Source of the DNA: Bugula neritina | Lineage: Eukaryota; Animalia; Bryozoa | NCBI GenBank assembly: GCA_964035545.1 | Contig: OZ037766.1 | Span: forward strand, 1,984,001-2,048,000 | DNA length: 64,000 nt | Direction: 5' to 3' | Shown: positions 30,201 to 60,185 of the stretch, piece after piece | How the letters are laid out: every line of letters starts with the position of its first letter | Numbering within the stretch: the stretch's first letter is position 1 | Translations under genes and position numbers: made by a program | Notes under the pieces: model-generated | What the model was told of the DNA's origin: nothing | Database searches by the model: none | Seen by the model: the letters and a program-made list of their open reading frames with translations, nothing else

Positions 30201-33200
30201 ACATAACGGCTTTCTCCATGCTTCTGGAAGAAATCCGCCAGGTTTCTATCTTAATCAAACAAGTTTACAATTGTTAATTTTTTTGAATAATATTTTACTA
30301 TATTTTGTTATAATGCTTATTAAATTATTAGAATGAGTTTATATATTACTATTCATTGCTGTAGCTATAACTCCTAGATTTATTGAAGTCATTATCTTGT
30401 AGGTGTTATTCAGAGATGATCGACCAATCAAGTACATCCGTCAGAAGGTAGAGGATTGGATACGAGATTTCTGGAACCAGATAGACATTCTCTCCTATGC
30501 ATTGTTTATTACAGCTATAGTCCTGAGGTTCACCTTCTCTACCCGCAAGTTTGAGTGGGCCAGGGGACTTTTCTGTTTCTCTTTTATGATCTACTTTATC
30601 AGATTCAGTCAAATTTTGTTCGTCGTCGAGCAACTTGGACCGAAGATTATCATGATTAAGAAAATGGTGAGTGATATTTTTTTGAAGTTATAATGAAATA
30701 CTTACTATGAATTGATTTACTTTGGGAATCTAAGCTAAAGTTGATTAAACTATTTTATGTAAAAAAGTATTTAAAAAAATTAAATTCATAAAAAGCTATT
30801 TCAGAAATTTGTCCCCAATCAAGTCATTTGCATTATGTAAACTTAAAGTTTCACAAGAAAAATAATTAAAATTTAATATTTATCACAAAAAGTGGTAATT
30901 ATTGAAAGTTTAAATTACCTTGTTGATAAATTATTTTGAAAGCAATAAATACTTAGTGCAGCGTAAGCTTTACTATGGCATTGCAAGGTGAATATACGAG
31001 TAATTCAAAGTTCATTTCATGTGGTTGTGCAGTCCAAAGTTACTCAATAAAATATACCAGCTAGTTTCAAGTATATAAATATTATGTTAGTCTGGAAGAA
31101 GATTGCAGCTATAATGCAGAGTAAGGGTGATGCACCTCTCGTCCCTATATCTTGCAGATGGTTGATTTGATATTCTTCCTGGTTATCTTGTTGATGACAA
31201 TCCTTGCATTTGGAGTTATCTGCCAAGCCATTCTCAATCCTGAGGCTTCCCTTACTTGGAATATTATCAAAGATGTTATCTACTGGCCGTACTTCCAAAT
31301 GTATGGAGAGTTGTTCTTGGAAGATGGCTTCCAGGAAGGTTAGCAAAATAAGTAAAGTTTAGCCATGCAGCTAAACTCTAACAGCAGTTGCTGAGTTTGT
31401 GGAGAACAGTGTTTGCCACATTTGTTCAAACTCATGTGAATCAACTAAAAATAGATGCTGCAATTGATTTTTTAAAATAAATTTCTATTAGAAAATCAAA
31501 TACTCAATAAACTAGATATAGTTTGATATGCTAGTTCAGCTTAAATAATTTCTCGCTGAGATATTTATGTAGATGTTGAAATAGAGAATTTATTTTTAAA
31601 GGATTGCTCAATCTTAGTTTATTACAATCACATTATAATTATGAACTATAATTTAATGTGTATGCAAACAATTGTGACTTTGCAAAGGGATATGTGCCTA
31701 GAAAACAGCTTTTCAAAATTCCAATTTTGAGGGCGATAAAATTTTCAGCCATGAAAAAGAATAGCCTAATACGTGACGTGTGAACGCCAGTAACTATGCT
31801 GCACGTGCTAACTATAACGCTAGTATTCAAGGTTGCTGAGCACAATATCAACCAATAACGCTCAAGCAGTTACAGTGCGCTATATAGGTCAACTTTGGTG
31901 CGCCCGTAATATTGCACAATCTGACCTAGTTTAGATCGATCGCAGGCATTCATCCTAAAGAATGCATGTTTTTGCAATGCTTTTTTCTAATGGTTACAAG
32001 CAAAATATAGCCTAATGTTATTACATACATGTTATTTAAAATGTCAAAAAACTATAGATTAAGAGAATTCACATTTGCACTTCTATAAATATACAAATTA
32101 CGAGCTGAAAGATCACATCTCACAGTCATATTTCTATAGTTATTCATTTGTATAGTCACGTGACCAGCAGGAATGCTGGCGCTGTTACGTCACAGTTCCC
32201 AGCTCATTTCAAAATCGGCGTTTTGGCTGTTACCAATCTACACCCTCAACTTCAACTAACTTTTTCTACCTTTGGTCAAATGCTTTTTGTCAATGCATGC
32301 TTAGAAAAACACAATATTATGTGTGTTTGACCTAAATGGCCATTTATTAGACAAGATAGAGCAATCCTTTAAGACATTTTAAGTAGTTTTGTATTACTTA
32401 AAGAAGTGATTCAAACGGTTCAGTTTGCACTTAGATGAACCTTTGTTTTGTAGGGTATAGATGGGTACTACTTGGTATATACATGATACTAACAAACATT
32501 CTACTCCTCAACCTGCTTATTGCTATGTTCAGGTTTGTAGCTATTATATCAAATTTTCTCACTCTTGTCACCTGTCACTTATGTGTCCTGTCTCTCATGT
32601 CACCTGTTGCTCATCTCATCTCTCACTCATGTCACCTATCTCACTCATGTCACCTCTCACTCATGTCACTCCTTTCACTCATGTCACCTATTACTAATGT
32701 CACCTGTTACTCATGTCACCTGTCTCACCCATGTCACCTATCTCACCCATGTCACCTCTCTCACTCTTGTCTCCTGTTACTCATGTCATCTTTCACTCAT
32801 GTCAACTCTGGCTCATAGTCTTTGGTGTTTAAAATGCTATGCATTAGTAGGTCTCAATCTTTCCGATAATTTATAGAATGTAGCAGCAAATATTGGTTTG
32901 GAGTTTGGAAAAACATATTATATTATTATATCAATGCTTTTGTATCTGTTAGTTAAGTTCTATTTTCATTTGTTCCCCTTTTGTGATTTTTTCTGACCGT
33001 TTCGTGTTTACAGTTACACGTTTGAGCAAGTTCAGGAGAAGTCTGAGATACTGTGGAAGTTTAACTACTACGCAGTTGTATACGAGCACTTTGACAGACC
33101 CTATGTCCCTCTAATCGGTACTCTTGTTCAGATGTTGAGACACTGTAACTGTGGGAAATGTTCAACTATACTGGGCGGCCATCGGAATACAGACTTCAGT

Positions 33201-41000: not shown

Positions 41001-44000
41001 AGTAATTGCTAGTAAAATAGCCAACTAATACGCAAGTAGATAACTCACGCAAGTAGATAACTCACGCACAGTAATTACAAAAATTACTACAGTGGTGGCA
41101 GCGGTGGGATCTTGCGTATAACAGTCATGGCAGAAGACGGCACGGAGCTACCCATTCCACTGAATGAAAGTGAGGAAGATAATGTTGATATACCTGTGGA
41201 ACCAGTAGTGTTAGAAGAAGTGAGAATTCCTAGAGAGCCTGGTGAAGACAGATACCGGCTGAAGGCGCCCACCTTCACAGGCGAGGAAGCAGTAGAGCAA
41301 TTTATCCAGGAATTCCAAGATATGATGGAAATTGCACGGTCGCCACCGAGGGTGGCGTTGCTCAAACTCAGGATGGCGCTGACGGACAAGGCTAAGCCAT
41401 ACGGAGCGGGACCTGACATAGGCGGGATCTTTGCTTCTCTGCGGGCCCGTTTTGGTATCTCCCCCATAGATGCGCGGGCCCGCCTACAAAGACTGCGGCG
41501 TGATCCTCACACGTCGCTACAGGAGCACCCTGCCACGGTGTATCCACTGGCGCAGATTGCGTTCCGCGATCTGCCTCAAGTGCACCGTGAGAGGTATACT
41601 TATGATGCCTTCGTGCAGTCCATCAACGACTTGGGGCTCCACCATCAGTTCCAAGCGAGGGGAGTCACCACGGTCGAGGATGCACTTGCGGTGGGAGAAG
41701 CCTACCTCATGGCGACTCATATGCACCGCAACCGCGTGGCCTCCCGCCAGGTGGCCAAGGAGCACACTACTGCTCATACTGAACCAAACGCGGAACCCTC
41801 CGCGGTGGCTAATGTGAACCAGATGTCACTAGCATCGAAAGTCGCACAAATGACTGACATGCTAGATAAACTGGTCGCCGCATTAGCTCCCCCAAGCCAG
41901 GTAGATACCGCCCGTGAGCCTTGCGGGCCGCAGGTGCAATCACCAGGCATGGGGCATAACTTCTGCTGGGGATGCGGAAGGCCAGGACATTTCCAGAAGA
42001 ACTGCCCTCAACTTCAACAAGGGTTAAACTACCACGGCCCGCAGATGTTCCCACCTCCTGCGGGCCGCCGGTAAACCACCCAGAGAGGACCGCGTGTCTG
42101 CCGCCCCGCTGGGCGCCGCGCGGAGATGCTGTGAAGTGGCGACCCCCGCGGCAAGTAGGCTCAAGCCACTCGCCACCTGGGTCCTCTACGCCACTCCAAC
42201 ACGGATCCGGCAGACGGTTGACCTCAGAGCCTGCGAGAGAAACGGTACAGGTGCCGCAAGGCGTACCGCCCCAACCTCGGCAGCTGGTCAATAGTCGCCG
42301 CCAACCGTGGACCCCTCGACCCACAGCGAGGGAGGTGCAACCACGGCACACACAGCTGCAACCACACGGAAGTAGCTACTTCCTACCAGGAAAGCTAGCT
42401 GGCAAGCCTGCCAACTTCCTTCTGGACTCGGGCTGCACCACCAACCTCCTTAGCCGTCAATTCTTTGACACCCTCAGCGCTAAGGTCAAGGACGGGTTGG
42501 CACCATATGAGGGGGATCATGGCACCCTGGCAGACGGGTCGGGCATTCCCTTCTACGGCATTATTGAGCTGACTGGTTACATCCGTAACTAGGCCATCCA
42601 AGAGACGTTTATCGTCGGACAGCTCAACGAGGATGCTATCCTCGGGATGCCATTCTTACAACGACACGGATGTCGCATCGATTTCAGTAAATCTGCAATG
42701 ATCATGGGCGACAGAGAGCTCGCTTGTGTCGATAAGTTTGGTCGTCCTCTAGCGGGAGGAGTGCAGGTAGTACGGAGCTGTACGATACCAGGCCACTCCC
42801 GGGCTACCGTCCGCTGCAAAGTAGACGGTGGCCAAACCTCTAAGTTACGAGTTGTCGAAAGTACGCACTCAAGAATCCAACTTGCCCATAGCTTTAGCCA
42901 GCTTACGGGACAAGGAGAGATCTCAGTGCAGTGCGTCAACCCCTCCTCAGAGACGGTAGACCTCCCACCCAGGTCCATGCTGGGCCGCTTCCATCCTGTC
43001 CAGGAGGAAGCCATTGGGCCGTCGTTGGGAGCTGCGACGGAAGGTCCTCAGCAGAGCCCGTCTCCAGGGCGGAGGACCGTCCCAACCCACGCCTCCCGTC
43101 TGCCAGGGACGCGTGGCTACACAGGCAACAGAAAGCGCCAGGCTATGGCTATGTTGCCACACCGGTACAGTGGGGCGCCCCGCCACACAGACCACGACGC
43201 CCGCCTAAATAGAGCAGGCTGTCGCGAGGTACCACGGGCGGCGGAGACCGCCCCTACTCAGCAGCCCACGAGAAGGTTGGGCTCGAAGGAGAGGAGCAGG
43301 GTTCCCCCACGGAACTCGGGCCAACTCCAACAGAGGGCTGACATGCCCCCGGAGGCTGTCCAGAGCCTCCGCGCCAAACCTGTATGGGCTGGTAACGTCA
43401 GGGAGCTGCCGAAACTCCAGGAAAGCCTTCCTGGGGTAGTAGCCGACGTGTACCGAGCGAAACAGGAAGGGCGACGACCCAGTGGTAGACAACGGCAACA
43501 GGGATGCGCCGAGTTACGGCTGTACTGTCAACGTTGGAACTCCCTGCGAATTGGGCCAGATGGTCTGCTGACCATGACTTTGGCCGCCAACAGCAGACAA
43601 CCAGCCAGGAAGAGGATCGTCTGCCCAGCTGCCATCCGCCGGGAGTTGATACGGGACACCCACGAGCAGACTCACGGAGGAGTCCAAGGGGTGGTCACCA
43701 AGCTACAACTCCGGTGGTACTGGCCCAACATGGAGCGGGACATCTGGCGCAGAGTGAGACGGTGCAAAGTCTGCCAGACCAACAAGCATAGCCGTCTCCC
43801 TGGTAAAGCGGGGCGGCAGACGCATTGTGCGAGGAGGTCTTGGCAAGCGGAGACTGTCGTCCTGGCCGGAAACACCCCCATGACTCCGCAGGAAGACTTG
43901 GCGAGGCAGGAAAAGCCACTTTTGTCCTTGGAAGTGCGCCCACCGCCCCCAACGTCAAGCCTGCCATCACCACCACTTCCGGAACCGGAAACAGGTCCAG

Positions 44001-47000
44001 AAGTGCAAAAACACCCCGTGGGAGGGGCTCCGTACGGAGATACCAACGTAGGAACAACCGTCACAAACAGGCTGGAAAAACCACCAGTGAGACGTAACAA
44101 TCCACGGGTGAGCACACCGCCTCCCACAGTGACGACGCCTCCAGGACCACACACTAGGCAACCCCCAGCGTGTCTCGGAGACTTCGTACGTGACCGCGGT
44201 ACAAGCGGCAGTTATGAAGGTCTAGCGAGATCTCGCAGGGGAAAACAGGCAAAGAGACGTGGGAGTTGTGAACACCACGAAAATCTCAACTTTTGCCTCA
44301 ACGGAATCACACACGAGATTCATCCGCTGGAAGTAAAAAGCCCTAGTCACGCTTCACAACCATGCTGCCCGGTCTTTTCCTACGTTGATGCAGTCAAGAG
44401 TAGACGTGCCACTGAACAGTAATCATTTACTGCTCTCATTCCAAAATGTCTTACTATTCTGGATCGAAGGGTGAGTTAATTATGTTTTTGGTACGGGAAC
44501 TAGACTGCATCAGTCAGCTCTAGCTACACCAGTAGCGAGCTGGTGATTCGATAATGAAACGCAGTGGTGGGAACACACGTCGACTTTGATTTTAAATAAT
44601 CTGCCATAGCGAGTGTGTTCTCCATCAACTATTCATTAGCCTGAATCTCACGAGTGTAACTGAACAGAGTACCTGTCAGGCTGTACACGCCGGCGGTACC
44701 TCAGTGTATAATCTTTAACACTGCTACTCTTTCAGATCACACTCGAGTGACCACCTCCCGGTCCCGGGACCAGCCAACCCCTCTACCTATGGAGGAAGAA
44801 CCTGTAATGGAGAATGGCTTACCCGTAGTGCTTCGTCGACGACACCGCTGGGTGTCACCCACGGCGGAAAGGAGGATTGAGGAAGCCTGGGGACCAAGTG
44901 GACCCCACCGGACCTGCCAGGTCTGTTTCCAGGAGTGCCCGTCACACCGCTCCCTGCGTCTGCATGTAGACGCACACTTTCTACTACATTTCTGCCCATG
45001 CGGGTTCCACGATGTATACCCGTACCCTGTGATCGTCCACAAATTGAGCTGCATCGCCGGAGAGGGCCATGTTGTTGATGAGGACAGTTTCCCCCAATAC
45101 CTAGACACCATCAAGCCGGTCATCAAGAAGGCTATCACCCTGGCCGCACTAGCGTCAGGATTCCAAGTACTGCTGTTATCCACCCGCCATAAGTCCCCTA
45201 TGGTTCAGGGCCCATCCACTACCCCCATCAACCCTAGCAACACCCCCAAATCCGAAGGAACAACAATACCCCCAACAGCAGAGACTGCTACAACCCCACC
45301 AAGGCCTAGCCGAATGGCTAGTGTAGAAGAGCGGCTTGTAAAACTACAAGCCGAGTTTACGCAACTTGCCCCTGACCTGCTGGATACGACGACAGGTCTA
45401 TACCAGCTGAAGGATTCCGTGGGGCGACTGAAGAGGCGGCTACGTGCCCGACAGGCTCGACACAGATCACGCTCGCTACAAGAGTCAGAATCCACCCAAT
45501 GAGTATGCCTGGGGTAGGCACTTTTCGGTGAGCTGTATCCTCGTCTGGAAAGTGACGAGTGCACCGACATTGGCCCGCGTGCTGGTAAGCACCCTCTCTC
45601 TTTATAGCTGACTAGCTGTGTGTATTCGATCACCCTGTTTACTTCTGTATATAAATGTTTGTGTACTCAACTATTTCCCTTCTTCCTTTTTGTGGGTTTA
45701 CTTATGTATTCTTTTTTTTTGGATTATTGTATTGTTTTTCTTTATATGTGTTTTTTTTGTATTGTGTTATCAGAAAGTAGGGCTTTCTGCTGGGGGGGGG
45801 CGGTGTAGTGAGTCATGCAATGTACTAATATGAGAATCGTCCTCTCTCCGTTCGGGGAATACTAAGGCCCCTATGAAGTAACCAATCAGCAGCACCGGAA
45901 GATATGCTTCCGACTTATGTGACAATTCCCGGGCAATTAACATTGATCACGTTGTTGTAAGCGAGGGCTTGAAGTAGAAACATGTGTTAGTAGTTGACTT
46001 ATGTATAGGATAATTTGATGTAATGTTTGCTTTGTATTATATTGTGGATAATAAACATAATTACCCGACAGCTACCCTAGTAATTGCTAATAGAATAGCC
46101 AACTAATACGCAAGGAGATAACTCACGCACAGTAATTACAAGAATTACTACAATATAACTAAACGTCTGATTTTTTAATGACTCAAAATATGCGGACATA
46201 AACATTCTTTGACTGTAAATCTTCAAACTCAAGTAAATTAGGTACAAGCTATGTTAGCTGAATGATAGAATGGAAATGTTAAATTCATTTTTTTATAAAT
46301 AGTTATAACCCTACACAAAACAAATAACAAAAGATAAGCCCCAAGGCAACTGCTACTATGTCTATAGCTTCCTCTCCTAAGTTTACCATAGCTATGACAT
46401 ACTGCATTCAGTGAGAATCTGACCTAATTTAACTTTCACCACTCAAAGCCAACAGCATTTCATCATCGGGTTTGTTATAATTTTTAACAATTGTGATTAC
46501 CTTTATAGCATACCTGTGTGTAGACATAAATGCAGACATCATTTTTGTTATAAGTCAGTCTACTATTGCCTTGTGTACAGTTTTCTCAATTGAATAGCCT
46601 TGCCTATTTATATTCATGGACCAATGATCAATGCTAGTTGCTGAATATTTGCAATAAGTTGAGTTGAAAGTGCAAGCTTAATGGCATCTAATTTAAAAAT
46701 TTTGCTTCACCATTTTGTTTTAGATTTTGTTGATTTGAATGATTTTTGAAATTGCCTCGCACGGCTTTAGGTAAAAATGGCACGCATATTTTGAAATCAT
46801 TGAGCTAAGCATTGAGTTTTCAATCTGACAGATAACAAAGATGGAGTGAATATTCCAATAGTAACTCTACTAGTGAACGGCGGAGATGGTTCGCTAGAAT
46901 CGTGCCATGAAAGTCTTGGCGTAAAGATTCCCCTGGTGGCCATTGCAGGATCAGGACGTGCAGCAGAAGTTGTAGTACGTCTGCATAAACTGTGCAAGTC

Positions 47001-50000
47001 TCACTATGCTGACAAAGCAAACAGCTTTGATGACGGCTGGCGGTGAGTCATGCAGTGATTTGGTCTTTGATCAGAGAGGGTAAAATCTGTTCACCAAGTG
47101 AACTCAAGAAATCTTTTAGATCTTTAGGTTTGCTTTATAAATTCACCCTGATATGACATAACTTGAAACTACTATAAAAATCTAGACTCTAAAACATCAT
47201 ATGACTGAGACCATAAGACTTTTGGAGTGTATGACTAAGGCTGTGTGACTGAGACAGTGTGACTGACACTTTGTGACTAAAACTATGTGACTAAAGTGTT
47301 GTAATATGTTATTTTGATTGAATCCTGTAATTTTAAAAATGCCAATAAGCAACTTTCAGTGGGCCTAGCAAAGCAAAACTTAATACTGTTTATTGGATAT
47401 TTATTATTTAGCATTAAATAAACTAAATTGACTCAGCCAAGTGTCCTTGACATTGCAGAGCAAGTGCTTGATGTCAGATTTTAGTTGATAGGAAAACTTC
47501 TTAGAGATTACTTTTCTTATACTATCAGAATACTGTAAAACTACTCGTTTACATATAAAGTTATTTCCATTTTCTATTTCTTGCATATTGCCACACATTT
47601 TTAATTCAATAGGTTTAATTGTTTTTCTCTATAACACATATTACCTTTGTATATGGCAAGCAAGCGGAAACACCTCATTATGTATATGTGATAAACTGTC
47701 TAGTATCACTAATGTTTATAAACTACTAGCTGATTTAGAGATTGTATTTTGATTTACTGCAGTCCCTCTACGGCTAGTCTCTCGGAAGTATATGAGAAAG
47801 CAATGGGTGTTAAGCCAGTCACAGAAGTTCTTAAACATCTAGAAGTTATAGCTGAAAACCACCACTACGTAAGCTATAGTGACTGCATTAGTGTTCCCAA
47901 TGTTTAACTTCGACGTTCTTCTGGGGCATTTTTTGTGTCTTACCACAGAGAATTTCATGCAAAATAGCTTTACTGTTTACACATTAAATTTGAAAGGTTT
48001 TCTGCTACCATTCAAAGCTCTAATGGAAACAGGGTTGTGTAATGAAGATGAACAATAAACTAAAATGGCGTCATTAAAAAATTTCTGACACAATTTTCTA
48101 TGCAGTAATAAATTTATGATATTTTGATACAACATAAATGAGGTGTGTCAGGGATGATCTTAGAGATACATTCATAGGGCAGTTGTGTCTCCCAGTATGT
48201 TATACCTTATTTTCTGATTCATATATCTATATGCTAGAAATATGCAGTAAGACTCAAACTTCGTAACAACAGCATTTAATTTGTACAATGCTATTTATAG
48301 TTTGGACGTGGTTTATGTTTCCATATTATGTTTATAATAATTTCCTTTACAATGCTTATAGTTTGCAATGCAGCTAAGTTACCATACCATTCCAACTATT
48401 TTAGACTTCAAAAATTTGATTTAAATCTTAATTTCAAAGCAAGTCTGAAGAATTTAATGAAATATTTTTTTACTTTTAAAGCACAGGCAAGTTTGATTTT
48501 TTATATGGGCATTTACACAGTTCATTTTTGAGTTTTTATGCAGTGAATTCTTAATTTTAGATATCTGTGGTAGACTTTACCCAGGCTAGTTCCAGCTTCA
48601 TAAGTGACTATGGTCTCGATAAAGCCATTCTTTCTGCTCTCTTTCCCAAGAGTATATTGTCAAGGTCAACTGATGCTGATGCAATCATAGTGAAAAGGAA
48701 AGCTCAAATGAGGCTGGCCCTGGCGTGGAACAGAGTGGACTACGCTAGAGACGATATTCTCAACCCTTCCAACGCTGACTACAAAAAAGTGAGTTAGAAA
48801 CTTTGTGTCTAGACTTCTATGCTGTCTCGGACTACAATATCTCTGTAACGCTCAGCTTATTGCGTTTCTTGAATTGAATAGTTTGAAAATTTCTTGACCG
48901 AAGAATGAGAGTGGAAAGTTGCGTATATCAGTATAGAAAATTAAATGTTCACTGTGTAAAAATTTCAAATCAGTTGTAGAAAATTATGTTTTCACTGCAA
49001 AAAGCGACATAAAAATTAAATGTTGAGTGTAGAAAGAACAAATCAAACTCACGTGGATTTGTAGCTGCTATTTGTGTGCGAAGCTCCTGCTGGCAGAGTC
49101 TTTTTTAAGTAAACTAGAGACTTGTTTTCATTGTGGCACAGGAGCAATTATGACTAGAAACTCTTTCTAACGTCACCAATAATCTTTACCGAGACTCAAA
49201 AGGCGAACTTGTGTTTTCTAAGCTAGTGTTGTAACTATACTAGACCAGATTTACTCCTTTTTTTAAAAATAGGAACAGTTGATTAATACTCACACAACAT
49301 AAGCTGGTGACCTCAAAGTGGTGACATTATTTTGATTAGAAGCCATTCAAGTTTACGCATTTAAAATTGATTTAATAAAACTCAATAGGTTTTTGGCTAA
49401 TAATTTAGTTTCTGCAAGAGAAAGAATTCCTCAGTGAGATCATGCTAGAAGCACTTGTAGAAGATCTGCCGGAGTTTGTTGAGTTGTTCCTTGAGCATGA
49501 CTTTGACCTCCAAACATTTCTCACTGTAGAGTGTCTGGAGAAAATCTACAAACAGGTATATCATTTTTATGTCTAGATTCGTATATTTAAGCTGTTACAA
49601 CTATTGAATTTTATTGTTTAAATATTAGGACAATATATATTGACTTTCAGTAGAGTTCAAGCCAAATTATCAGAAAGGATTCTTGTGATCTCAAGTAATA
49701 TTATATCATGATTATACTGAGTTCAGATATTGCTGTAGTCTGATCATAACAAGTAATCGACTACAGGTATAACTTCTGCTTGCTTAAACTGAAGTGTAAC
49801 TAAACTTTCACACAAGAAAATGATGAAAAAAATTACGTTTTTGCTTCAAAAACTAAAAATGAAGATTAGTTGAACTGAATTAATATTTTTAAAAAGCTAC
49901 CAAAGATGTTTTTTCTCTTTTTTTCAGACCATGAAGCGAGACGGTGCTTTTTCAAGAATGGTGAGTCGCTGTTTGGAAGATGAGAAGGCAGCTGCTGACA

Positions 50001-53000
50001 AGGTTGGTGATCTGATGAGTCATTCATTGTGTGCATGTACAATTGCTTTCAAAACTCATGGCAACCAATTAAATTTGTATACATTTGACTGATTGCTAAA
50101 TTATGTGTACTAAACCGTAGCTAGTAAATTAAAGTGAAATACATTGGTTCAGAAAACAAAAATTTGTTAAATATCATGCACTTTATTAAATGCAATTTCT
50201 TTTGAACATATCTTATGACTATGATAAAATTTGTTTTAATTTTCTGTTCTACATGACTTAAATAATTATTTTACAAACATGTTGAGATTTCCTATATTTC
50301 AATTTTTTGACATTAATGGAGAAATTAAGCTTTTTAATAGTATTTAGACTATTAGGAGTTACAACCTCTATTACTAATCTAAACATAGCATCTGATTTAT
50401 GACAGAAAAACAACCGCACAACTGAACCTATCAGAATACATCTTCTGTATTAAACCTTAATTCATGACAGAATTATTTGCCTAATAATCATGTCAATGTG
50501 AGCTTTAAAATGTATACTTATTGAGGTTAGAATTATATTATCTCTGTAGTAATTGGGAGTTATCCTATCTAAGGATTATTACAGTGTGACTGTTGTGACA
50601 TCCTTTATTACAGTGTGACTAATGCGACATTTTCTATTACAGTGTAGTACTATTGTGACATCCTTTATTACAGTGTAGTACTATTGTGACATCTTTTATT
50701 ACAGTGTAGTACTATTGTGACATCTTTTATTACAGTGTAGCTGTTGCCTCAACCGTGTAAATCCTGAAACAAATTTCTTGCATTTCATTGGACTAACATT
50801 TAAGAAGCTGTTGGATTATGCTTACCCCAATGTGTATAAAAAAGGTATTTTATTGCATTATAATTTGAAGAGCACTTTAGGTAAATTAAGTAAATTAAGC
50901 AGTAAAAGTCTATCTTTGAAATTTTGACATGATGTGTTTATTTTGGACTTATGCTTTTTGATTCAATGTGTGTGTTTATCATGCTGATTTTGATGATGCC
51001 AATTAAGTACTATAAGGTCGAGCTACACACACAAGTAACCTGCATCAACTCAATACCTGCACAATATGTGTTAAACTGAGATTCTAAAAACCTGTCATTT
51101 CATTGTCAAAGAGTAAGGCTAATGTATAGCCAATAAGTGTAGTGTTACAGAGCGACAATGCAATAGGATGTTCAGTAGCAATTGATCTATTCATATGTGA
51201 TATAGCACAGCCAATGAGATTTGGGATGTGTCACCGTATAACCACTAAGATATGAGTACAGCTGCCATCTAGTTAGTGATAATCTAGGAATATCATAACT
51301 GTATGTCCAGGTAGCAAATCCTACGACTCCGAGAAAAACCCTACTCAATTCCAGAATGCTTATCAGCATCTGTTTATGTGGGCCATCATCTTCAACAGAA
51401 TGAATATGGCCACTCTCTTCTGGAGATACTCACAGGATCATATTGGTGAGGTTTAGACTTTTAATTCAGCTTAGTGATTAAGCAGCCGTGGTCTAGGGTT
51501 TAGAGCATTTGCCTAGTAAACACGAGGTCATGGGTTCGAGCCCAGACAATGACCATTGGGGATGTTAGGAAGAGCATCCAGTCATAATTGCTCCTGTGCC
51601 TCATTTAAATATTAAGTCCTTAGTCCGCTTTAACAAAAACCCTTTCCATCAAGGGTTTCTCACAGTGATAGTGACTATATAAACTTGCACGAGTTTTTTT
51701 TAGTGATTAAGTTTTGTGTTGGAATAGCTAAGAACTGTAGTGTCATGATTACCCAGTAGTCCCTGTGGTGTAATGGTTAGAGCACCAGCTTGCAAGCCGG
51801 CGGTCTAGGGTTCGAATCCCGATGGGGGCAGAAGTTTTTATAATAGCATGCGATGACAGTTAGCAATAAATAGTATTAGTTTTATAACACCACAGATTCT
51901 AGAGCCAAATGAAAACAGCTCAAGTACAAAAGTCATTAAATTGTTTGAGTATACAACCACAAACAGTCTGTAGGGAAGAGCTGGAATATGTATGGATATT
52001 TTGCATAAAGTGTGTCAGGTAGTTTTCAAGGTTGCTTTATGAAGAGTTTATAAGAAAAGTGCCACGGTAGATCAAGTATGATAACTATAGTGTGTTTTAC
52101 CAATTTGAAGTTTTTTTACAAAGCAATGCAACTGACTTTCAAAACTAAGCTTTAAGCTATCTTTGAATATAGTTATGTAATAGTTTATAGTCGCTTAAAC
52201 AGGAAACATTTTATGTGCTTGCAAAGTTGTATGCTAATTAAGGACTGAAATAGTAAATACATTTATTTCATTATATCTTCTTTCATTTTGCAGCTGGGGC
52301 AATATTTGGTGCGGCGGTTCTGAGAGGCTTAGCCAAAACAAGCTTAAAGTTTGAAGGGGCTGATATTCAAGCAATCTACACTGCTAGCTCACTGTAAGTC
52401 ACTCACAGCAGTTGAATTAGATTAATTAACTCACAATGATTTATTTACATTAAGTAAATCGCAATAAACTACTTACAGTGACACACCACTAAAAACTAGA
52501 CATAGCTATGTAACCAAACTTCCAGCCTCTAAGCAACTTTAGATTAAAAGTTGCCTAGTGGCTTAGAATAGCAACTTGGGCTTAAAGAAAACAAATGTTT
52601 CATATATAGATGAAGAATATTAATTTAATAGTTTAACCCAATGTTCTATATTATAATAATTTGGCCAAAAACAGTTCTACAAACTAGAAGCGAGATCTGA
52701 CGTGTTTGTGAAACTGTGGAGGATTATGCATGCCATGCATGTAAGTGCATGAATGCTGGTTGTAAGTTTCTTTGTTATATAACCAAGTTAGGTACTTATA
52801 GGGTAATAACTGTAAGTGGCTGAGTCATATGTAACCAAGTTACCTATGGAGTAGTTACTGTAAGTGGCTGAGTCATATGTAACCGATTTGACTATAGAAT
52901 ACTGACTGTAAGTGACTGAGTCATGTAGCTAAGTTGACTACAGAATACTATAGTAGAATTGTAAGTTCAGAATAAATTAGGCAGAGAACATAACTCCTTG

Positions 53001-56000
53001 TATGGTGAGAGAATTAAGAGGTTGTATGGTAAAAATAAAAAAATTTTTATTGTGGTATAAGTAGATCCTTCCTCTATGAGCTCCAGCTGTAGACTGAATT
53101 ACAACTGCGAGCTCTTTATATAGTAACACAAAGGCTGGTTCCAGAAACTTCGACCAATCTTCGGCTCGAACACTTTCGGAGTGTCGGAGCCTGACATGAC
53201 CGACAATATTCTAAACTAGCTGAAAGCCCGACACTCCGACATGCCAATCTTCGGTCGAAGACTGGTTTACACAAAGAAAAAGAGATGAAGTATTCACTAC
53301 GATAAAAGTTTAACTATAATTACAATACTTAAGGCATTTAAAAAAATACACAACGCAAATAGTTACTAAAACTTTTCAGAACATAGTGATGATATTTCTC
53401 AAAATTCATTAAACCACTAACTGTAGATGACTCAGTTGTATAATAGCTGATCTGATAATAAATAAATAAACTAAATTGGTGAAATTTTCTCACTTTGTTG
53501 AATAATTAGGATCACAGAACCAACATATTTATTTACTAAACTTGACAGGGAATTTGAAGTAATAGCCAACGGAATCTTAGAGTTATGTTGGTCTAAGGAT
53601 CATCAGCTCACGTCAGACATGTTGGTAAGAGTGAGCGATACTTGGGGGAGTTCAACTGTTCTGGCAATGGTGTACAACGCTGAGATGGAAGAGTTTATGG
53701 CGCAGCCGGCCTGTTACAGTAAACTGAACAAAATATGGAGGGGAGATATTTCCCTCCAAACACCATTGTGGAGGGTGAGTCATGAGTAGCTACTGTAAAG
53801 ATCAGTGTGAGGGTGAGTCATGAGTACTGTAGAGATCAGTGTGAGGGTGAGTCATGAGTACTGTAAAGATCAGGGTAGAAAGTTATATTTTACAGCCAGC
53901 TTACACATTTGCTGTTGAATATATACTGTTTCCAATTTAGTTTATAAATTGTAATTTACTACTTGTCTATATACAACTGCATCATCTATCCATCATATGC
54001 TTGCCAAAATTATTGCTAACCGTTACCTATTGCAAGGCATTTGAAATATTACTAGCTATTATATTTCCCATTCAATGACCTGTGTTCCTTTGCAGATATT
54101 TGTGTTCGCTATCATGCCATTTATGGTCTGGTTGCTCACCTTTATCCGGAAGAATGACTCAGACACACGACTGGATGAGCTCCACAAACAGCTCCTGGGA
54201 GAGGAAGGCATGCTGAATAGAGAAGCCGACTCTGCCAACTTAAAGCCGACAATATCTGTGACTTGCTCCTCTCAGGAGAAATACGAGATATCCTACTTCA
54301 GGGCAATGTATAGGGGGTTCACCTCTCCTATTGTCAAGTGCATTCATTATTCAGTGAGTATAGAATAATTATCAGCAAATATGCGAAATAAACACAAACC
54401 TAATAGATAATGGATAACAAAATTTTAATAAAACACATTTCTTTCGATATAGCCTTTACCTAGCAAATGTAATTTTTTTTATTACACACATAAATTTTTC
54501 TAATCACCTAAGCCATAAGCTAAAGTGAAAATTGTTTGCCTTTAAATCGTAAACTGCTGGTGGGTTTTTTCATCATGTTGTCTTTTTTTCCCATTTGCAT
54601 TTCAACATTTCTTCATTTGTTGAAAAATTATCAACAATCGTTCGACACTATACGAGTCAATTATATGCGTTTACATTCATGGACAAGGTACACTCATGAA
54701 CTGTATTCTCCTTTAGATGATGTTCCTGTCATTTCTCTTCATCTACTCCCTCTTTCTCATGACTGAACTCCGTCCACACATCATTGCTGTCGCCAACAGC
54801 ACCGACTGTGACTACAGATCAAAAGATGTCTGCTGCAAGACTGACACTTCCTTTCGCATCGGATACCTAGAGGGCGCCACTTACTGCTTTGTGTTTGCTA
54901 ACTTCCTGGAGGAAGTGAGGCAGGTATGGGCGGAGCTTAGCTAGCTTTAGCAGTTTCAGACTATTTTAGCATGTATTGGTAATTTTTAAAGTCGACATAT
55001 CAATATCTATTTAAATTAAAGTAAAGGATTTAATTAGAAACTGCTAATAACGGAATGCTGAAGACGCATGGAAATACACTGAATACTTTTTGCTGAATAA
55101 ATTGAAGGAGTAAAAAGTGGACATCAAATGTGTTTGGTATAGTCACTTGTCTAGGATTGGCTAACATAGCAAATAATCAATGCAGTGCAATACAATAATT
55201 ACTTCAGTTTCTTAAACAAATATATTTTAATTGGAAAGCATCCATCACTTGCAGTAACAATAATTTTCATTTCCTTAGTCATTTTTATAATTCATATCAA
55301 CTCATGCATCTGTGTTGTTAAACTAGGTTGCTTCTGTAATCTAGGTCATTTCTTTTATCTAGGTCATTTTTAGAGACAGAATGCCAATGCGCCTATTGGG
55401 CCCAAAGATTTCTAATTGGTTGCGAGAGACTTGGAACAAGGTTGACCTGTTGTCCTATATTGTGTTCATTCTGGCAGTAGTTCTCAGACTCGTACTGTGT
55501 GAGACCAACTTTGAATGGGCAAGGATTTTCTTCTGCTTCTCTCTTATTGTTTTCATCATCAGATTCAGTCAAATATTCTTCGTTGTGGAAAACTTAGGAC
55601 CCAAGATAATCATGATTAAAAATATGGTAAGCTGCTATAAATTTATTATATTCTACTATGTTTACAACAATTGATACCCTTACCAGTATTAGCAACACTC
55701 ATGCAGGAGTAGAAGCTTAAAGGAAATGACTAATATGCTGTGTTCTAGCTCTATGATCAGAAATATAAACTATAGTAGTAAACAAAAGAAAAAGAATAAT
55801 TTTTTTTTAGTTGTTTTAGGAAGCAGCAGCAGCAGGGGCAGCAGCAGCAGCAGCAGCAGTGGCTGTAGTAGCAGCGGCTGATAGTAGCTGTGGCCTGTGG
55901 TAGCAACAAAGTAATAACTAAACATAGAAAATAACTTGCTGAATTAAGACAAGCTGCGGTATAATTATTCACTGCCACTATTCATTACCTATAGATTTAA

Positions 56001-59000
56001 TACTAAATTTTGTAGATTGTAGACCTGATGTTCTTTTTGGTTATCTTGTCCTTGATGATTTTAACATTTGGAGTTGTGTACCAGTCGATACTTCACCCTG
56101 AAACAACCTTAACCTGGGGACTAATAAATAGTGTGATATACAAGCCCTACTTCCAAATGTATGGCGAGCTGTTCCTCGAAGATTTTGGTGATGGTAAGAT
56201 TGTCTTTCCTCTCCGTATATCTTGTATCTGCCAACAATTGCTGCAATTACCGTATTAATTAGCAGAAATAGTTTTGTCCTTTTGATCAGCGTTTTACCTT
56301 CAGTGATGTGTTTAGAGTTTAAATTTAAACAAGTCTAGCTGATTCTACTAAATACTTTTGATGAAACCCTTAAAGTATTTTCTTTGTGCCAAATCCTGAA
56401 GAGAATAGTTAAAATTAAATGTTTAAATTTTTTGGAAAAATTCAAGTATAAATACACTAAAATCTAGTACGGTACATGCAAAGCATACGGTCTTTCCTAT
56501 CTTATTTTTAGAATGCATTGTGAATCATTACAGTGATAGTGTTTACTTTCTATTACTGATTGACAACTTTGATGATTTTAAACTAAAGATTATAATACTA
56601 TTTTAATGTCTTTTGCTTTCTTATTGATTAAAAGTAGTAAACTATCAGGTTTCTTAATCTAATTTATAGTTTTTATATTGCTTATGCTCTTAAGATCTGA
56701 TACTATTTAACTTGTAGGATATAGATGGGTACTACTTGGTATATACATGATACTAACAAATGTTCTACTCCTCAACCTACTTATTGCTATGTTCAGGTAA
56801 GGTTTGTGTAGTGTTGAGTTTACCCAGTGGCCTCCGTGGTGTAATGGTAGCACACTTGCTTGCAAGCTGGTGGACTCGGGTTCGATTCCCAGTGGGGACA
56901 ATTATTTTACAAGCTATTTCGGCCTCAAGTGAAGTGTAGTGATAGTACCCTGAGAGAGTTGAGTGGCCAGGAGAGCCTGATGACTGAAGGAGTAGTAGAT
57001 AGGCCAGTGGAGTTCAAAGAACTGGGTGGGATGTAGGGTTGAGCTACCCAGTGGCCTCCGTGGTGTAATGGTAACACACTTTCTTGCTAGCCAGAAGACT
57101 CGGGTTCGATTCCCAGTGGGGGCAATTACTTTACAGTTTGTAGCTCATAATTACATAGAAACATATCTGCACAATGCTGAATACTTATTTACTGCAGTCT
57201 AGTTGTCTATATTATACCAGTTTCCATGACAGCTGGTGCTCTTCAGTATTATAGTATACCTGCTAGTTGAAGAATTGTGTATAAATTACAGAAAAACATC
57301 AAAACATGTTCACAATAATTCATTCAGTTAAAGACAGTAGCAGAGAAATTTTAGTAGTCTAAGCTCCTTAATTATACAAATGAGTTTTGGTTTGGGTTGT
57401 GCGTTGAAAATCCAATACTATGAAACATAATAAAATTGTACTAAATATTATACCGAAGTCTTTTCACTTTTTACCCAATCGAGTTTGTTAATTTGTTTTA
57501 GCTACACGTTTGAGCGTGTGCAGGAGAAATCTGAGATCCTGTGGAAGTACAACTATTACGGGGTAGTGTACGAACATTTTGATAAGCCATACATACCACT
57601 CTTGGGTACTCTGTTTCAAATGCTAAGAACTATTCGTGGTCGCAGCGAAAAAATCAGCTCTAACTTTAGTAAGTCTTCTGGAATATTCACTTGAACATTA
57701 AATACTTACATACATATACTTGAACATTAAAGTTTTCATTTAATATTCGAAGTTATATTATTTTTATAGAAAATTATTTTCAAATTAGAAAAAATTCAGT
57801 TATGTATAAATTTTTGAGGTTTTATAGATTAAATTTGCCAATTGATACAAATTTGTCTGACATGCAATATTGTAAATATAACAAAAGCTAACCGAACAAA
57901 AGTTATACTTATTACCTTCGTCATAAGTTAAGTGAATTGCTTCAAACAACTTTCTTTCTTACCATATAATATCATGATATTATATAATGTTATATGATGT
58001 CATGTAATAGCATATAGTATCATATAATATTATGTAATATTATATAATATTTCATAACATCATATAATATTACAGAGTATCATATAGTATTAATGTACAT
58101 AATATAGTTTTATTTGTCAATTAATACATATTTTAAAAAATACAAAATTATGAATACTGTAATATAATATTTTCAGAAGTAACATTAAAATGGCATTAAA
58201 AGTATTGACTTGGAAATTATCATTATAAGGTATTATATAAACAATCAAAATTAAACATTGTTGTCATATTTGAAGTTTTTGCCTGCTAAAAACCTATTAA
58301 CCCATTGTTGAAATAATATAGTTTTAAGATAATACAATGTTGAGATAGTATAACATTTTGAAAAAGTATAACATTGTTAAAATGACTACTTTCTATTGTT
58401 GACAAAGTGCGTAGCTATGTTGCACCACTTTTCCGTCTTTAGGAAGGCACTTGGATGATGACCCGAACAATAAGGTGACCGATTTTGTGAGAGGCTGTAT
58501 GCTGATTTACATGTCACACCAGACCAGGTTGAAGCAGGAGGACATAACCCATAAAGTCAGCAACACAGCCCATAGGTTTGCTATTGTCTGGTTTCCAATT
58601 AGTCAATTTGTCAAGGAGTTCGAAAGATTGCTGATATGTGAAAATTGTAGCGACTTTTTACAAATTCGATTGCTAAAAACTGAGCAGTGAAAGAGAGCGC
58701 TACCATATGCTTGACTTTGCTTTTCGTTATTTTATTTAGTCAATCGTGAAAGAAATACATATAACTAAAAAAATGTTGGCAAAGCTTTGTGGCAAAATAG
58801 AAGTGTTTCTATGACAGTCATTTATTAGCTTTATGCGGATAAATAAAATTTTGTAGATAACATACAAATAAATGTGTCCTAAAAGCTTGTATATAATAAG
58901 AAGCCTTGTAGTTGGAAACTTTGCCCTTTGAGCTTTGACTTTAATAAAATTAGATGCGGCTACTTGCCAACTGTTTCAGGCAGTTACTAAAACTAATCTC

Positions 59001-60185
59001 TTCGTGTTGTACATTATGCTAATAGCTAAATTCCCATTTAATAATGACCAAGTTATACAATGTTCCATATATGACTTTTTAACAAATAATCGTTTGTAAC
59101 AATTGTTATCATTTATGTATATAGTTTCAACATGTGCTTGGCTTTTAACTTTTAGACTGGAGCTGGTAATAGAACAGTTGGAGGATCTAAAAGAAGACGT
59201 GAACAAGCAACCTGAGTCTGACTCACCTCCCACTCACCCTACTTTTACTGGGAACGTATCAAAGTATGTCTGACATTAAGTAATTACTAGTAACACTTTA
59301 TGAATGCCAATTGACAATGGTTTAACTAATCAACATCTAGTATACTTGATATCATCAACTATCATTATTCTTTACTACCACTAATTGCTTTTGAGTGTAA
59401 GTAATTTAATTTAAAGATAGTTTTATTTTATCCATGAAAAATCAAAACTTAAAAAAATTGGGATTTTAAATTTTAAAGCATTATATAAGGCTGGATTTAT
59501 TCAGGTTTATTACCATTCAAGTGATTACTATGATATTATATAACTTAGATTATATAGTTTATACTACTATTATGCAATAAAGATTCAGTAAATAAAACTT
59601 ATCACTTATTGTCAAAAAATATGTTACTGTTTGCTCAGAACAATTAGTACCACCCTCTCATGGCCACATGATTATCTACAACATTACTCAATTACTTGAT
59701 TCTAATTTTTCTTCATCAATTGGCATACAGCTGTTTATAAATAGAATAAAAAGCTGTGATGGCTGTGCTACACTCCTAAAAATTAACAATTTAGAGAAAA
59801 TTTACTGTTGAAAAATAATTTTGCCCCCACTGGGAATCGAACCCGAGACCTCTAGCTCGCAAACAAGTGTGCTAACCGTTGCACTATGGGGACAAATAGG
59901 TAAACTCGTCACTACAACTGCCACTTTGCTCAACTAGTGAAAAGTTCTTTAACTTTTTTTTCCAGACATCTGGACCCTGTAGCTACGATGGGATCCCGTA
60001 GCGTAGAGTCGAGACTGGAGGCCAAACTGAGTGCATTGGAAAGTCTCCAGTTCAATTCAGAGACCAAGTTTGATGCAATGGATGGCCTCAAGTCTCAGCT
60101 GAACCAAGAATTACGCAGGCTGGACAGTCTTGAGACCAAGGTGGAGACAATCCTCGAACTTCTTCTTAATAAACTGGAGAAATGA
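38044..60185 (+). CDS. TRPM: TRPM-family cation channel paralogue B (tandem duplicate, shorter N-terminus), about 1280 aa
   Basis: Exons: 38044-38146, 38533-38677, 38876-38987, 39237-39420, 39814-39974, 40333-40519, 46832-47042, 47763-47868, 48561-48788, 49409-49555, 49928-50002, 50736-50844, 51311-51445, 52294-52393, 53549-53774, 54096-54353, 54717-54923, 55363-55626, 56016-56193, 56718-56796, 57502-57668, 58443-58575, 59156-59263, 59966-60185. Intron positions and phases match gene A from the INFRKDAKSTYEPP exon onward, with the same TRPM motifs. The summed length is divisible by 3 and I saw no internal stops. Confidence 0.92.
40726..41091 (+). repeat. 5' LTR of element 2
   Basis: Direct repeat of 45804-46152; contains CCAAT, AATAAA and a duplicated CGCAAGTAGATAACTCA. 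Confidence 0.96.
41093..41110 (+). promoter_or_regulatory. tRNA-Leu primer-binding site (element 2)
   Basis: The same 18-mer TGGTGGCAGCGGTGGGAT, 1 nt after the LTR. Confidence 0.9.
41127..42074 (+). CDS. gag: Gag of element 2 with an intact CCHC zinc knuckle
   Basis: ATG at 41127; CWGCGRPGHFQKNC at 41964-42005; collinear with element 1 Gag. Confidence 0.92.
   Translation: MAEDGTELPIPLNESEEDNVDIPVEPVVLEEVRIPREPGEDRYRLKAPTFTGEEAVEQFIQEFQDMMEIARSPPRVALLKLRMALTDKAKPYGAGPDIGGIFASLRARFGISPIDARARLQRLRRDPHTSLQEHPATVYPLAQIAFRDLPQVHRERYTYDAFVQSINDLGLHHQFQARGVTTVEDALAVGEAYLMATHMHRNRVASRQVAKEHTTAHTEPNAEPSAVANVNQMSLASKVAQMTDMLDKLVAALAPPSQVDTAREPCGPQVQSPGMGHNFCWGCGRPGHFQKNCPQLQQGLNYHGPQMFPPPAGRR
42023..42067 (+). 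promoter_or_regulatory. -1 frameshift signal (element 2)
   Basis: G TTA AAC, 5-nt spacer, stem CGGCCCGCAG / CTGCGGGCCG, 13-nt loop; the pol ORF lies in the -1 frame. Confidence 0.82.
42023..44422 (+). pseudogene. pol: Internally deleted pol of element 2: protease (one TAG at 42590-42592), linkers, integrase HHCC domain and C-terminal tail; RT, RNase H and integrase core missing
   Basis: LLDSGC is present. The alignment to element 1 jumps from QPTRRLG to GQLQQR (about 43295) and from VLAGNTPMTP to QEDLARQE (about 43885) with the frame kept. Confidence 0.9.
44446..45502 (+). CDS. ORF3 of element 2: zinc-finger plus coiled-coil protein, two exons (44446-44470, 44736-45502), 263 aa
   Basis: ATG mini-exon MSYYSGSK, GTGAGT donor, TTTCAG acceptor in frame; CQVC-x12-H-x3-H, CPC-x12-H-x3-C, C-terminal heptads. 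Confidence 0.78.
45771..45803 (+). promoter_or_regulatory. Conserved hairpin plus polypurine tract (element 2)
   Basis: CAGAAAG-taggg-CTTTCTG, then a G9 tract before the 3' LTR. Confidence 0.8.
45804..46152 (+). repeat. 3' LTR of element 2
   Basis: Direct repeat of the 5' LTR, followed by TSD ATAT. Confidence 0.96.
50575..50740 (+). repeat. 29/31-bp acceptor-site minisatellite (6 tandem TTACAG acceptors)
   Basis: AG ends at 50584, 50613, 50642, 50673, 50704 and 50735; only the last gives the TRPM frame without a stop. Confidence 0.9.
51483..51699 (+). mobile_element. tRNA-derived SINE, apparently full length
   Basis: A box TGGTCTAGGG, B box GGGTTCGAGCC, T-rich tail, 12-bp TSD TTAGTGATTAAG (51471-51482 / 51700-51711). 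Confidence 0.85.
51736..51842 (+). mobile_element. Solo tRNA-containing LTR of the same TRIM family (diverged)
   Basis: TGTAGTG..TTACCCAGT leader, A and B boxes, GGGGGCA..TTTTTATA end; TSD degenerate. Confidence 0.65.
52808..52950 (+). repeat. About 48-bp tandem repeat (3 copies) containing CTGTAAGT and TGAGTCA
   Basis: ACTGTAAGTGGCTGAGTCATATGTAACC.. repeated. Confidence 0.75.
53768..53872 (+). repeat. 30-bp donor-site minisatellite (3 copies), same unit as 28097-28407
   Basis: GTGAGG-GTGAGTCATGAGTACTGTA(G/A)AGATCA in the equivalent intron of gene B. Confidence 0.9.
55822..55875. repeat. Intronic (CAG)n repeat
   Basis: Directly visible. Confidence 0.9.
56807..57135 (+). mobile_element. Miniature LTR element (TRIM) with a tRNA-like sequence inside each LTR
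   Basis: Direct repeats 56807-56911 and 57032-57135 (TGTAG...TTACA), each with an A box (TGGTGTAATGG) and a B box (GGTTCGATTCC); 120-bp core ending in purine-rich GGGTGGGA; 5-bp TSD GTTTG. Confidence 0.85.
59809..59916 (-). mobile_element. Solo tRNA-containing LTR of the same TRIM family
   Basis: The minus strand reads TGTAGTGACGAGTTTACC..GGGTTCGATTCCCAGTGGGGGCAAAATTATTTTTCA; flanks ACTGT / ACTGC (4 of 5 TSD match). Confidence 0.72.

Follow-up and report, generated by a model that had tools for sequence, protein, structure and literature searches.

A Helenus-type TRIM in a TRPM-like gene of the bryozoan Bugula neritina, probably primed by the first 12 nucleotides of tRNA-Phe

The 64-kb stretch of Bugula neritina DNA analysed here (the window) holds a tandem pair of TRPM-like channel paralogs (~13.9-34.2 kb and 39.2-60.2 kb), each with an intronic Gypsy element, and Pfam SLOG and TRPM2-like domains are present in both gene copies. 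The exon at 55375-55629 is 98% identical to B. neritina EB796_012489, the sole match among 30 candidates scored, and further exons of EB796_012489 were mapped at 56016-56195, 56717-56794, 57485-57673 and beyond. One exon is 95% identical between the paralogs and others are 68-80% identical, an unevenness that suggests gene conversion or strong constraint. Behind one and the same exon both paralogs have a minisatellite with a 35-nt unit (28071-28419 and 53764-53879), and others have units of 60 nt (14969-15328), 20 nt (19563-20108) and 34 nt (28701-29380). The Gypsy elements, one recent (20302-27749, LTRs 99.7% identical) and one with disrupted frames (40726-46152, LTRs 93% identical), are ~70% identical inside with unrelated LTRs, encode RT, RNase H and integrase domains, and have 4-bp target-site duplications (TSDs; CTAT and ATAT) and a primer-binding site (PBS) for tRNA-Leu's 3' end. 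Another repeat, SINE-like and headed by a tRNA (~51470-51711; related pieces lie at 118-236 and 49126-49200), ends ~25 nt before an LTR copy at 51736 described below; its body appears to resemble the conserved Meta-SINE domain.

Within an intron of the second paralog, in sense orientation and 10 nt past the intron start, lies a unit of 329 bp flanked by GTTTG. The channel exon just 5' of it (56718..56796, forward strand) was placed by tblastn of P0121 (26/26 identical) and by reading its splice sites. On the forward strand the unit has the arrangement LTR(105)-core(120)-LTR(104) with TG...CA LTR ends, comprising a 5' LTR at 56807..56911 (105 nt, from TGTAG at 56807-11 to TTACA at 56907-11), a non-coding core at 56912..57031 (120 nt, one copy only in the window) that ends in the PPT GGGTGGGA (57024..57031) flush with the next repeat, and a 3' LTR at 57032..57135 (104 nt, from TGTAG at 57032-36 to TTACA at 57131-35). 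The forward-strand copies of GTTTG occupy 56802..56806 (host intron positions +6 to +10 of the TRPM-like gene) and 57136..57140. The first-pass annotation had proposed just such an LTR-core-LTR element with TGTAG...TTACA ends, PPT and perfect duplication, and every piece was found in place. An alignment of the two LTRs shows 11 differences over 104 sites and one gap, and because of this divergence (K2P 0.115, i.e. 11.5%) the copy is judged old, and probably inactive.

When the flanks are compared at k = 3-8 they match perfectly at k = 5 only (2/4 at k = 4), and a 5-mer flank match at such spacing arises by chance at 0.2% of window positions. The other paralog offers a comparison, as its corresponding exon, 95% identical over 87 nt, is followed at the intron start (32533..32542, forward strand) by one GTTTG and the same five bases that form the right flank of the element, and this paralogous intron serves as a proxy for the empty site of the 5-bp duplication. 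Between exon and TSD the occupied copy has five extra nucleotides (56797-56801) that make up a consensus 5' splice donor and are absent from the paralog, where the GTTTG target serves as donor (32533-32542). Possibly the insertion struck the old donor and the new one arose by a short duplication.

Two more LTR copies lie in the window, 71-83% identical to the paired LTRs, and a search with a profile of the four LTRs revealed no further full copy in the 64 kb. The earlier claim of solo LTRs at 51736 and 59809 holds insofar as nhmmer recovers an LTR at both positions. That at 59809..59916 (minus strand, Rfam tRNA match 59822-59893) is a solo LTR whose flanks agree at 4/5 positions for 5 bp vs 0/4 for 4 bp. 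The copy at 51736..51842 (forward strand, Rfam tRNA match 51759-51830) is diverged and without core, and is probably a solo LTR; its solo status was not borne out by a TSD, as its end is decayed and the flanks at the expected end match at 3/5 positions, giving no convincing duplication. The 5-bp TSD length is thus supported by a perfect match in one copy and a 4/5 match in another, the third copy being without a TSD.

All four LTR copies of the window score above the gathering threshold of the Rfam tRNA model (RF00005, 31-44 bits). In the 5' LTR the tRNA-like segment (56830..56900, forward strand, 35.4 bits), a predicted Pol III promoter, has its predicted A box at 56837-56847 and B box at 56879-56889, and in the 3' LTR the segment spans 57054-57124. 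A-box-like and B-box motifs are present in all four copies; box A reads TRGTG here, where the usual Helenus form is TRGCY. Close to the end of the 5' LTR a run of four T (56905..56908) is a candidate weak Pol III terminator, equivalent to three T in the second LTR and five in both the 51736 and 59809 copies. In the accessible parts of PMC10886601 Pol III transcription of published Helenus elements is likewise predicted, not demonstrated. It is unlikely that the LTR heads are functional tRNAs, because heads and core fold no better than shuffled sequence (z 0.93, -0.06, -0.12, -1.84 and 1.00), and no snoRNA or other credible Rfam match besides tRNA was found between 49 and 61 kb of the window. 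A sense-strand likeness of the core at ~56970-56990 to the D and anticodon arms of tRNA-Phe, seen by eye, was dropped, as other copies differ there.

Over the equivalent of the anticodon loop the 5' LTR carries a 10-nt palindrome (56858..56867, forward strand), which recurs at 51788-51797 and in loose-end majorities of contigs and is lost from the second LTR and the 59809 copy. A 10-nt palindrome appears anywhere in 7.8% of shuffled LTRs. It is possible that this one acts as a kissing-loop signal for RNA dimerisation. The same palindrome is found in Synergus Helenus-1 (PMC10886601 Data S1), and by eye 25 of 26 complete LTRs of rust-fungus Helenus are palindromic there, with CTAG (10) or CATG (15) (PMC10886601, supplement part 1); those rust-fungus families are inter-related, and only about half of the animal Helenus families examined have an anticodon-loop palindrome. 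The accessible parts of PMC10886601 make no mention of palindromes or dimers.

Other copies of the element were assessed through contigs from six of 17 sequencing runs, with four runs per stretch. The region 56600-57350 is covered by 1340-2056 contigs per run in four runs, and because 139, 171, 168 and 179 of these stop at 56807 and continue into mutually unrelated flanks (agreement 0.36-0.38), the family has a sharply defined 5' edge and is scattered across well over a hundred sites. Contigs show the core and PPT region, too, to be multi-copy, purine-rich tracts precede the LTR start in other copies (contig ends), and summed contig depth is hundreds-fold above that of the flanks, a figure that does not equal copy number. 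The first-pass annotation had raised the case of copies never occurring as LTR-core-LTR; LTR-core junctions recur in other copies, in 11-191 contigs per run, and core-LTR junctions recur as well. A joint from 57031 to 56807 was considered as a sign of tandem arrays and rejected, being the 3' LTR mapped onto the 5' LTR, and no empty-site joint is present among the 15 of 64 contig joints listed. Contigs in runs X7 and X11, guessed to be RNA, span the junction of LTR and PBS, which without a silent control is no sign of expression. Scans for other copies or for a helper gave 58 chance matches in phage DNA among viral contigs (further scans 0, 0 and 1 chance match), one chance match in a prokaryote-like coding stretch among metagenome contigs, and two chance matches only in a genome contig collection.

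The first-pass annotation was correct that no TGG-type PBS stands behind the 5' LTR, but its conclusion that the PBS is missing was mistaken. Flush with the LTR, at core nucleotides 1-12 (56912..56923, forward strand), is a putative non-canonical PBS, AGCTATTTCGGC, which on a test of equality is the exact reverse complement (12/12) of nucleotides 1-12 of human tRNA-Phe(GAA), as given by the primer sequence in PMC10505166. The human tRNA-Phe gene starts with the complement of the 12-mer (PMC11706605) and the last 12 letters of a 5' probe for Drosophila tRNA-Phe are the 12-mer itself (PMC7038984), so that the match rests on human and fly sequences, identity of the bryozoan tRNA-Phe being assumed. 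The predicted duplex (-18.7 kcal/mol) ends at tRNA nucleotide 12, and this nucleotide faces the base that directly follows the terminal CA of the LTR. An exact match of this kind has a chance probability of about 1.5e-5 (50 tRNA 5' ends x 5 offsets), or 1e-3 if any tRNA position is allowed. The 12-mer does not complement a tRNA 3' (CCA) end, as animal Helenus PBSs do, and lacks the TGG start; nor does its match, to tRNA-Phe nucleotides 1-12, correspond to an anticodon-cut half of that tRNA. The core contains no other candidate PBS, no match to the 12-mer within two mismatches lies in a meaningful context elsewhere in the 64-kb window, and no tRNA-Phe locus was recovered from viral contigs with a published 22-nt primer.

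Contigs from other copies indicate that the 12-mer has been retained. Over the stretch 56884-56970, represented by 113, 191, 91 and 11 contigs in four runs, no alternative letter reaches 4% at 56915-56925 in any of the four, whereas 56926-56939 has seven variant rows at six places. No majority change falls in 56899-56925 among the 40 of 137 rows listed, on which rows the statement for 56912-14 rests, the variant listing of this stretch leaving out ~30 nt at its ends (the majority changes at 56898, 56942, 56949 and 56955 are absent from it). Contig depth peaks at the junction of LTR and PBS (56911-13) in all four runs, and groups of 2-4 contigs retain the PBS and then diverge past 56923 or 56925. 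This conservation is inflated by seeding bias, as contigs with a different PBS may be missed, and decay is also seen, with one contig matching at 8/12 positions and four X6 contigs breaking at 56920.

TRIMs with tRNA-like LTRs constitute the Helenus group, TRIMp3, of Kojima 2024 (PMC10886601). The earlier proposal of a TRIM with tRNA-derived LTRs was upheld, as the element is short (329 bp) and non-coding, has two TG...CA LTRs with A and B boxes, and carries PBS and PPT at the two core ends, the PBS being non-canonical; the 3' tail, the variable-length TSD and the want of an LTR pair that characterise a tRNA-SINE are not seen. By the broad definition it is, from its sequence, a Helenus-type TRIM, and we regard this family assignment as secure. 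Like animal Helenus it is a short LTR-core-LTR element (published range 311-1263 bp) with a tRNA-like LTR bearing A and B boxes and a T run, TGTAG...TTACA-type ends, a PPT and solo LTRs (PMC10886601). It departs from them in its TSD, as the first-pass annotation had claimed from a single site, since Table S1 of PMC10886601 lists 115 animal families, of which two are undetermined and all 113 with a determined TSD have 4 bp. It departs also in its PBS, which pairs with a tRNA 5' end where the animal Helenus PBSs shown there pair with a 3' CCA end, and which is not shared with the Gypsies of the window. Bryozoa lie outside the six phyla listed for animal Helenus, and the accessible supplement of PMC10886601 contains no record beginning with the tRNA-Phe PBS and names neither Phe nor Bugula nor Bryozoa; no literature follow-up on Helenus beyond citations was found.

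Several of its traits recur, in other combinations, in known systems. Fungal and Selaginella Helenus, as small as 311-325 bp, make TSDs of 5 bp, and a truncated tRNA primer together with a PBS abutting the LTR is seen in the majority of fungal families, although their hosts are not animals and most use anticodon-cut halves (PMC10886601). Ajax and Cassandra share a Pol III-type promoter in the LTR (predicted here), and Ajax, too, is a TRIM of animals whose TSD is 5 bp long, but both carry 5S rather than tRNA-derived sequence and the Ajax PBS is that of a tRNA-Leu 3' end (PMC10886601). The biv-TRIM of bivalves is likewise an animal TRIM without canonical PBS, but no tRNA-derived LTR or 5'-end tRNA match is described for it in the accessible parts of PMC6934838. 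In Tf1/sushi elements, as here, the PBS is complementary to the outermost 11-12 nt at the 5' end of an RNA, and that RNA must be cut to give a 3'-OH (PMC7175516, PMC6317226); the Tf1 primer, however, is the element's own RNA, whereas in the present case a host tRNA would serve in trans, self-complementarity being at chance level. In the LTR the closest likeness is to a gall-wasp element, the 51736 copy agreeing by eye at 34/38 nt with the LTR of Helenus-1_SyJa/SyUm from anticodon arm to T arm, and both this copy and the Synergus Helenus-1 LTRs have TACCCAG just before the tRNA-like part (PMC10886601). This suggests an LTR ancestor shared with gall-wasp Helenus and a later change of helper; convergence on the palindromic loop is a possible alternative.

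The Gypsy elements of the window are unlikely helpers because of their 4-bp TSDs and tRNA-Leu 3'-end PBS, in agreement with the initial view that an integrase other than that of the local 4-bp Gypsy family mobilises the element. No autonomous element with a tRNA-Phe 5'-end PBS was found in the window or in the contig collections scanned, no Copia or BEL domain among window ORFs of at least 62 aa (76 of 128 scanned), and no relative of the window Gypsies in viral contigs. The accessible parts of PMC554778, PMC6238403, PMC8556966 and PMC3118150 are silent on the kinds of PBS that invertebrate BEL or Copia elements use. Truncated tRNA primers are reported in Copia only (PMC10886601, PMC6317226). 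Because the junctions are flush and the published users of truncated tRNAs are all Copia, our guess at the helper puts Copia foremost, at a little under an even chance, with BEL clearly behind it and another Gypsy lineage slightly behind BEL.

We consider it likely that this non-coding Helenus element is primed by a 12-nt 5' fragment of tRNA-Phe(GAA), a reading well supported by the position, exactness and retention of the PBS. Pol III would start in the 5' LTR, a short way upstream of the A box (near 56820-30), read through the weak run of four T (56905-08) and terminate at the T run in the 3' LTR, as is reported for the 5S promoter of Cassandra (PMC10886601), and because such a transcript runs from the vicinity of the A box to the 3' LTR T run, most of the LTR would be R region. 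An autonomous LTR helper would package this RNA, which possibly dimerises through the palindromic loop. The 5' strand of tRNA-Phe would then anneal to the PBS and be cut after nucleotide 12, a position suggested by the flush junction, since the 3'-OH of the primer defines the LTR end. The cut might be made by the RNase H of the helper, acting in trans as in the Tf1 reaction, or else a D-arm nuclease of the host might cut and trimming follow; the chemical precedent is the Tf1 RNase H, whose cleavage of a 5'-terminal RNA duplex falls between bases 11 and 12 (PMC7175516). Plus-strand synthesis would copy the primer up to tRNA nucleotide 1 and restore the 12-nt PBS, and we propose that conservation drops behind the PBS because primer copying regenerates 12 nt only. 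The integrase of the helper would produce the 5-bp TSDs. Against a tRNA 5' primer stands the fact that a 12-nt 5' fragment requires unwound acceptor and D stems.

Other readings must account for the same features. Each repeat taken alone scores as a tRNA, as it would were these two tRNA-SINE heads in chance tandem and no LTR element at all, but the TG...CA ends, the PPT, the 5-bp TSD with its empty-site proxy and the absence of a tail all speak otherwise, as do LTR-core junctions in 11-191 contigs per run, and this reading is effectively refuted by the recurrence of LTR-core and core-LTR junctions. The element might instead prime itself, as the first-pass annotation had suggested, the tRNA-like 5' end of its Pol III transcript folding onto the PBS and being cut as in Tf1. 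The best self-duplex of the first LTR (-11.4 kcal/mol) does fall exactly at the tRNA-like 5' end (56828-56841); it is equalled, however, by 32% of 300 shuffled LTRs, none of which reaches -18.7 kcal/mol, the heads of the two solo LTRs attain only -5.8 and -5.0 kcal/mol, and just 4-6 of 12 letters equal those of a perfect primer. Some pairing of this kind is to be expected from the likeness among tRNA 5' ends, and Kojima 2024 found no LTR-PBS complementarity in Helenus (PMC10886601). With self-complementarity at chance level, self-priming was rejected as the main reading and is most improbable.

Slightly less improbable, though still unlikely, are two readings that keep the TRIM and dispute the source or the role of the 12-mer. 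The primer might be the 5' end of another RNA sharing the 12 letters, contributed in trans by a Tf1-like self-priming helper or a tRNA-Phe-headed SINE. The geometry, 12 nt placed flush and matching the extreme 5' end of an RNA, is indeed that of the 11-nt self-primer of Tf1, and no helper was found in the sequences scanned, but an exact match to a tRNA 5' end would then be a coincidence of ~1.5e-5 unless that RNA derives from tRNA-Phe, and the 64-kb window yielded no such element. We give no more credence to the 12-mer being a captured antisense scrap of tRNA, or a binding site for 5' tRNA fragments, with priming achieved otherwise. The decay of the site in a few copies would fit this, as would the failure to find a helper and a primer role deduced from sequence, yet the 12-mer is placed and oriented as a PBS would be, with zero gap, the core has no alternative PBS, and conservation falls right behind the 12-mer. 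Priming by the 5' fragment of tRNA-Phe is thus the reading we prefer.

LTR retroelements are defined in part by their choice of primer, for which three modes are listed, a whole tRNA through its 3' end, an anticodon-cut half (the anticodon-stem half) and a self-primer, none of them 5'-terminal in the accessible parts of PMC6317226. A 5'-terminal tRNA primer was found nowhere in the openly accessible literature covered (including what could be accessed of PMC3601003, PMC6934838, PMC4139406 and PMC13570524; Repbase, Dfam, subscription journals and most supplements lie outside this scope), and a search of open full text for the PBS 12-mer gave, by title, no match on retroelement priming, that in PMC7038984 being the tRNA probe. 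We therefore put forward, tentatively and at somewhat less than an even chance, a fourth mode in which the PBS captures nucleotides 1-12 of an intact tRNA-Phe from the host, which are then severed in trans by an RNase H reaction like that of Tf1. It would be used both by an undescribed autonomous bryozoan LTR lineage with 5-bp TSDs and by its Pol III-driven parasite, the parasite having left a Gypsy helper while keeping an LTR related to that of gall-wasp Helenus.

If true, priming by a 5'-terminal tRNA fragment would be a fourth mode bridging tRNA priming and the self-priming of Tf1, and short 5' tRNA fragments would gain a replicative role. Elements described as having no PBS would then merit rescreening against tRNA 5' ends, because PBS finders look at 3' ends, and the PBS 12-mer itself provides a search handle for the helper. 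The element extends the range of Helenus to Bryozoa, where its 5-bp TSDs break the published rule by which animal Helenus means 4 bp and 4 bp means Gypsy.
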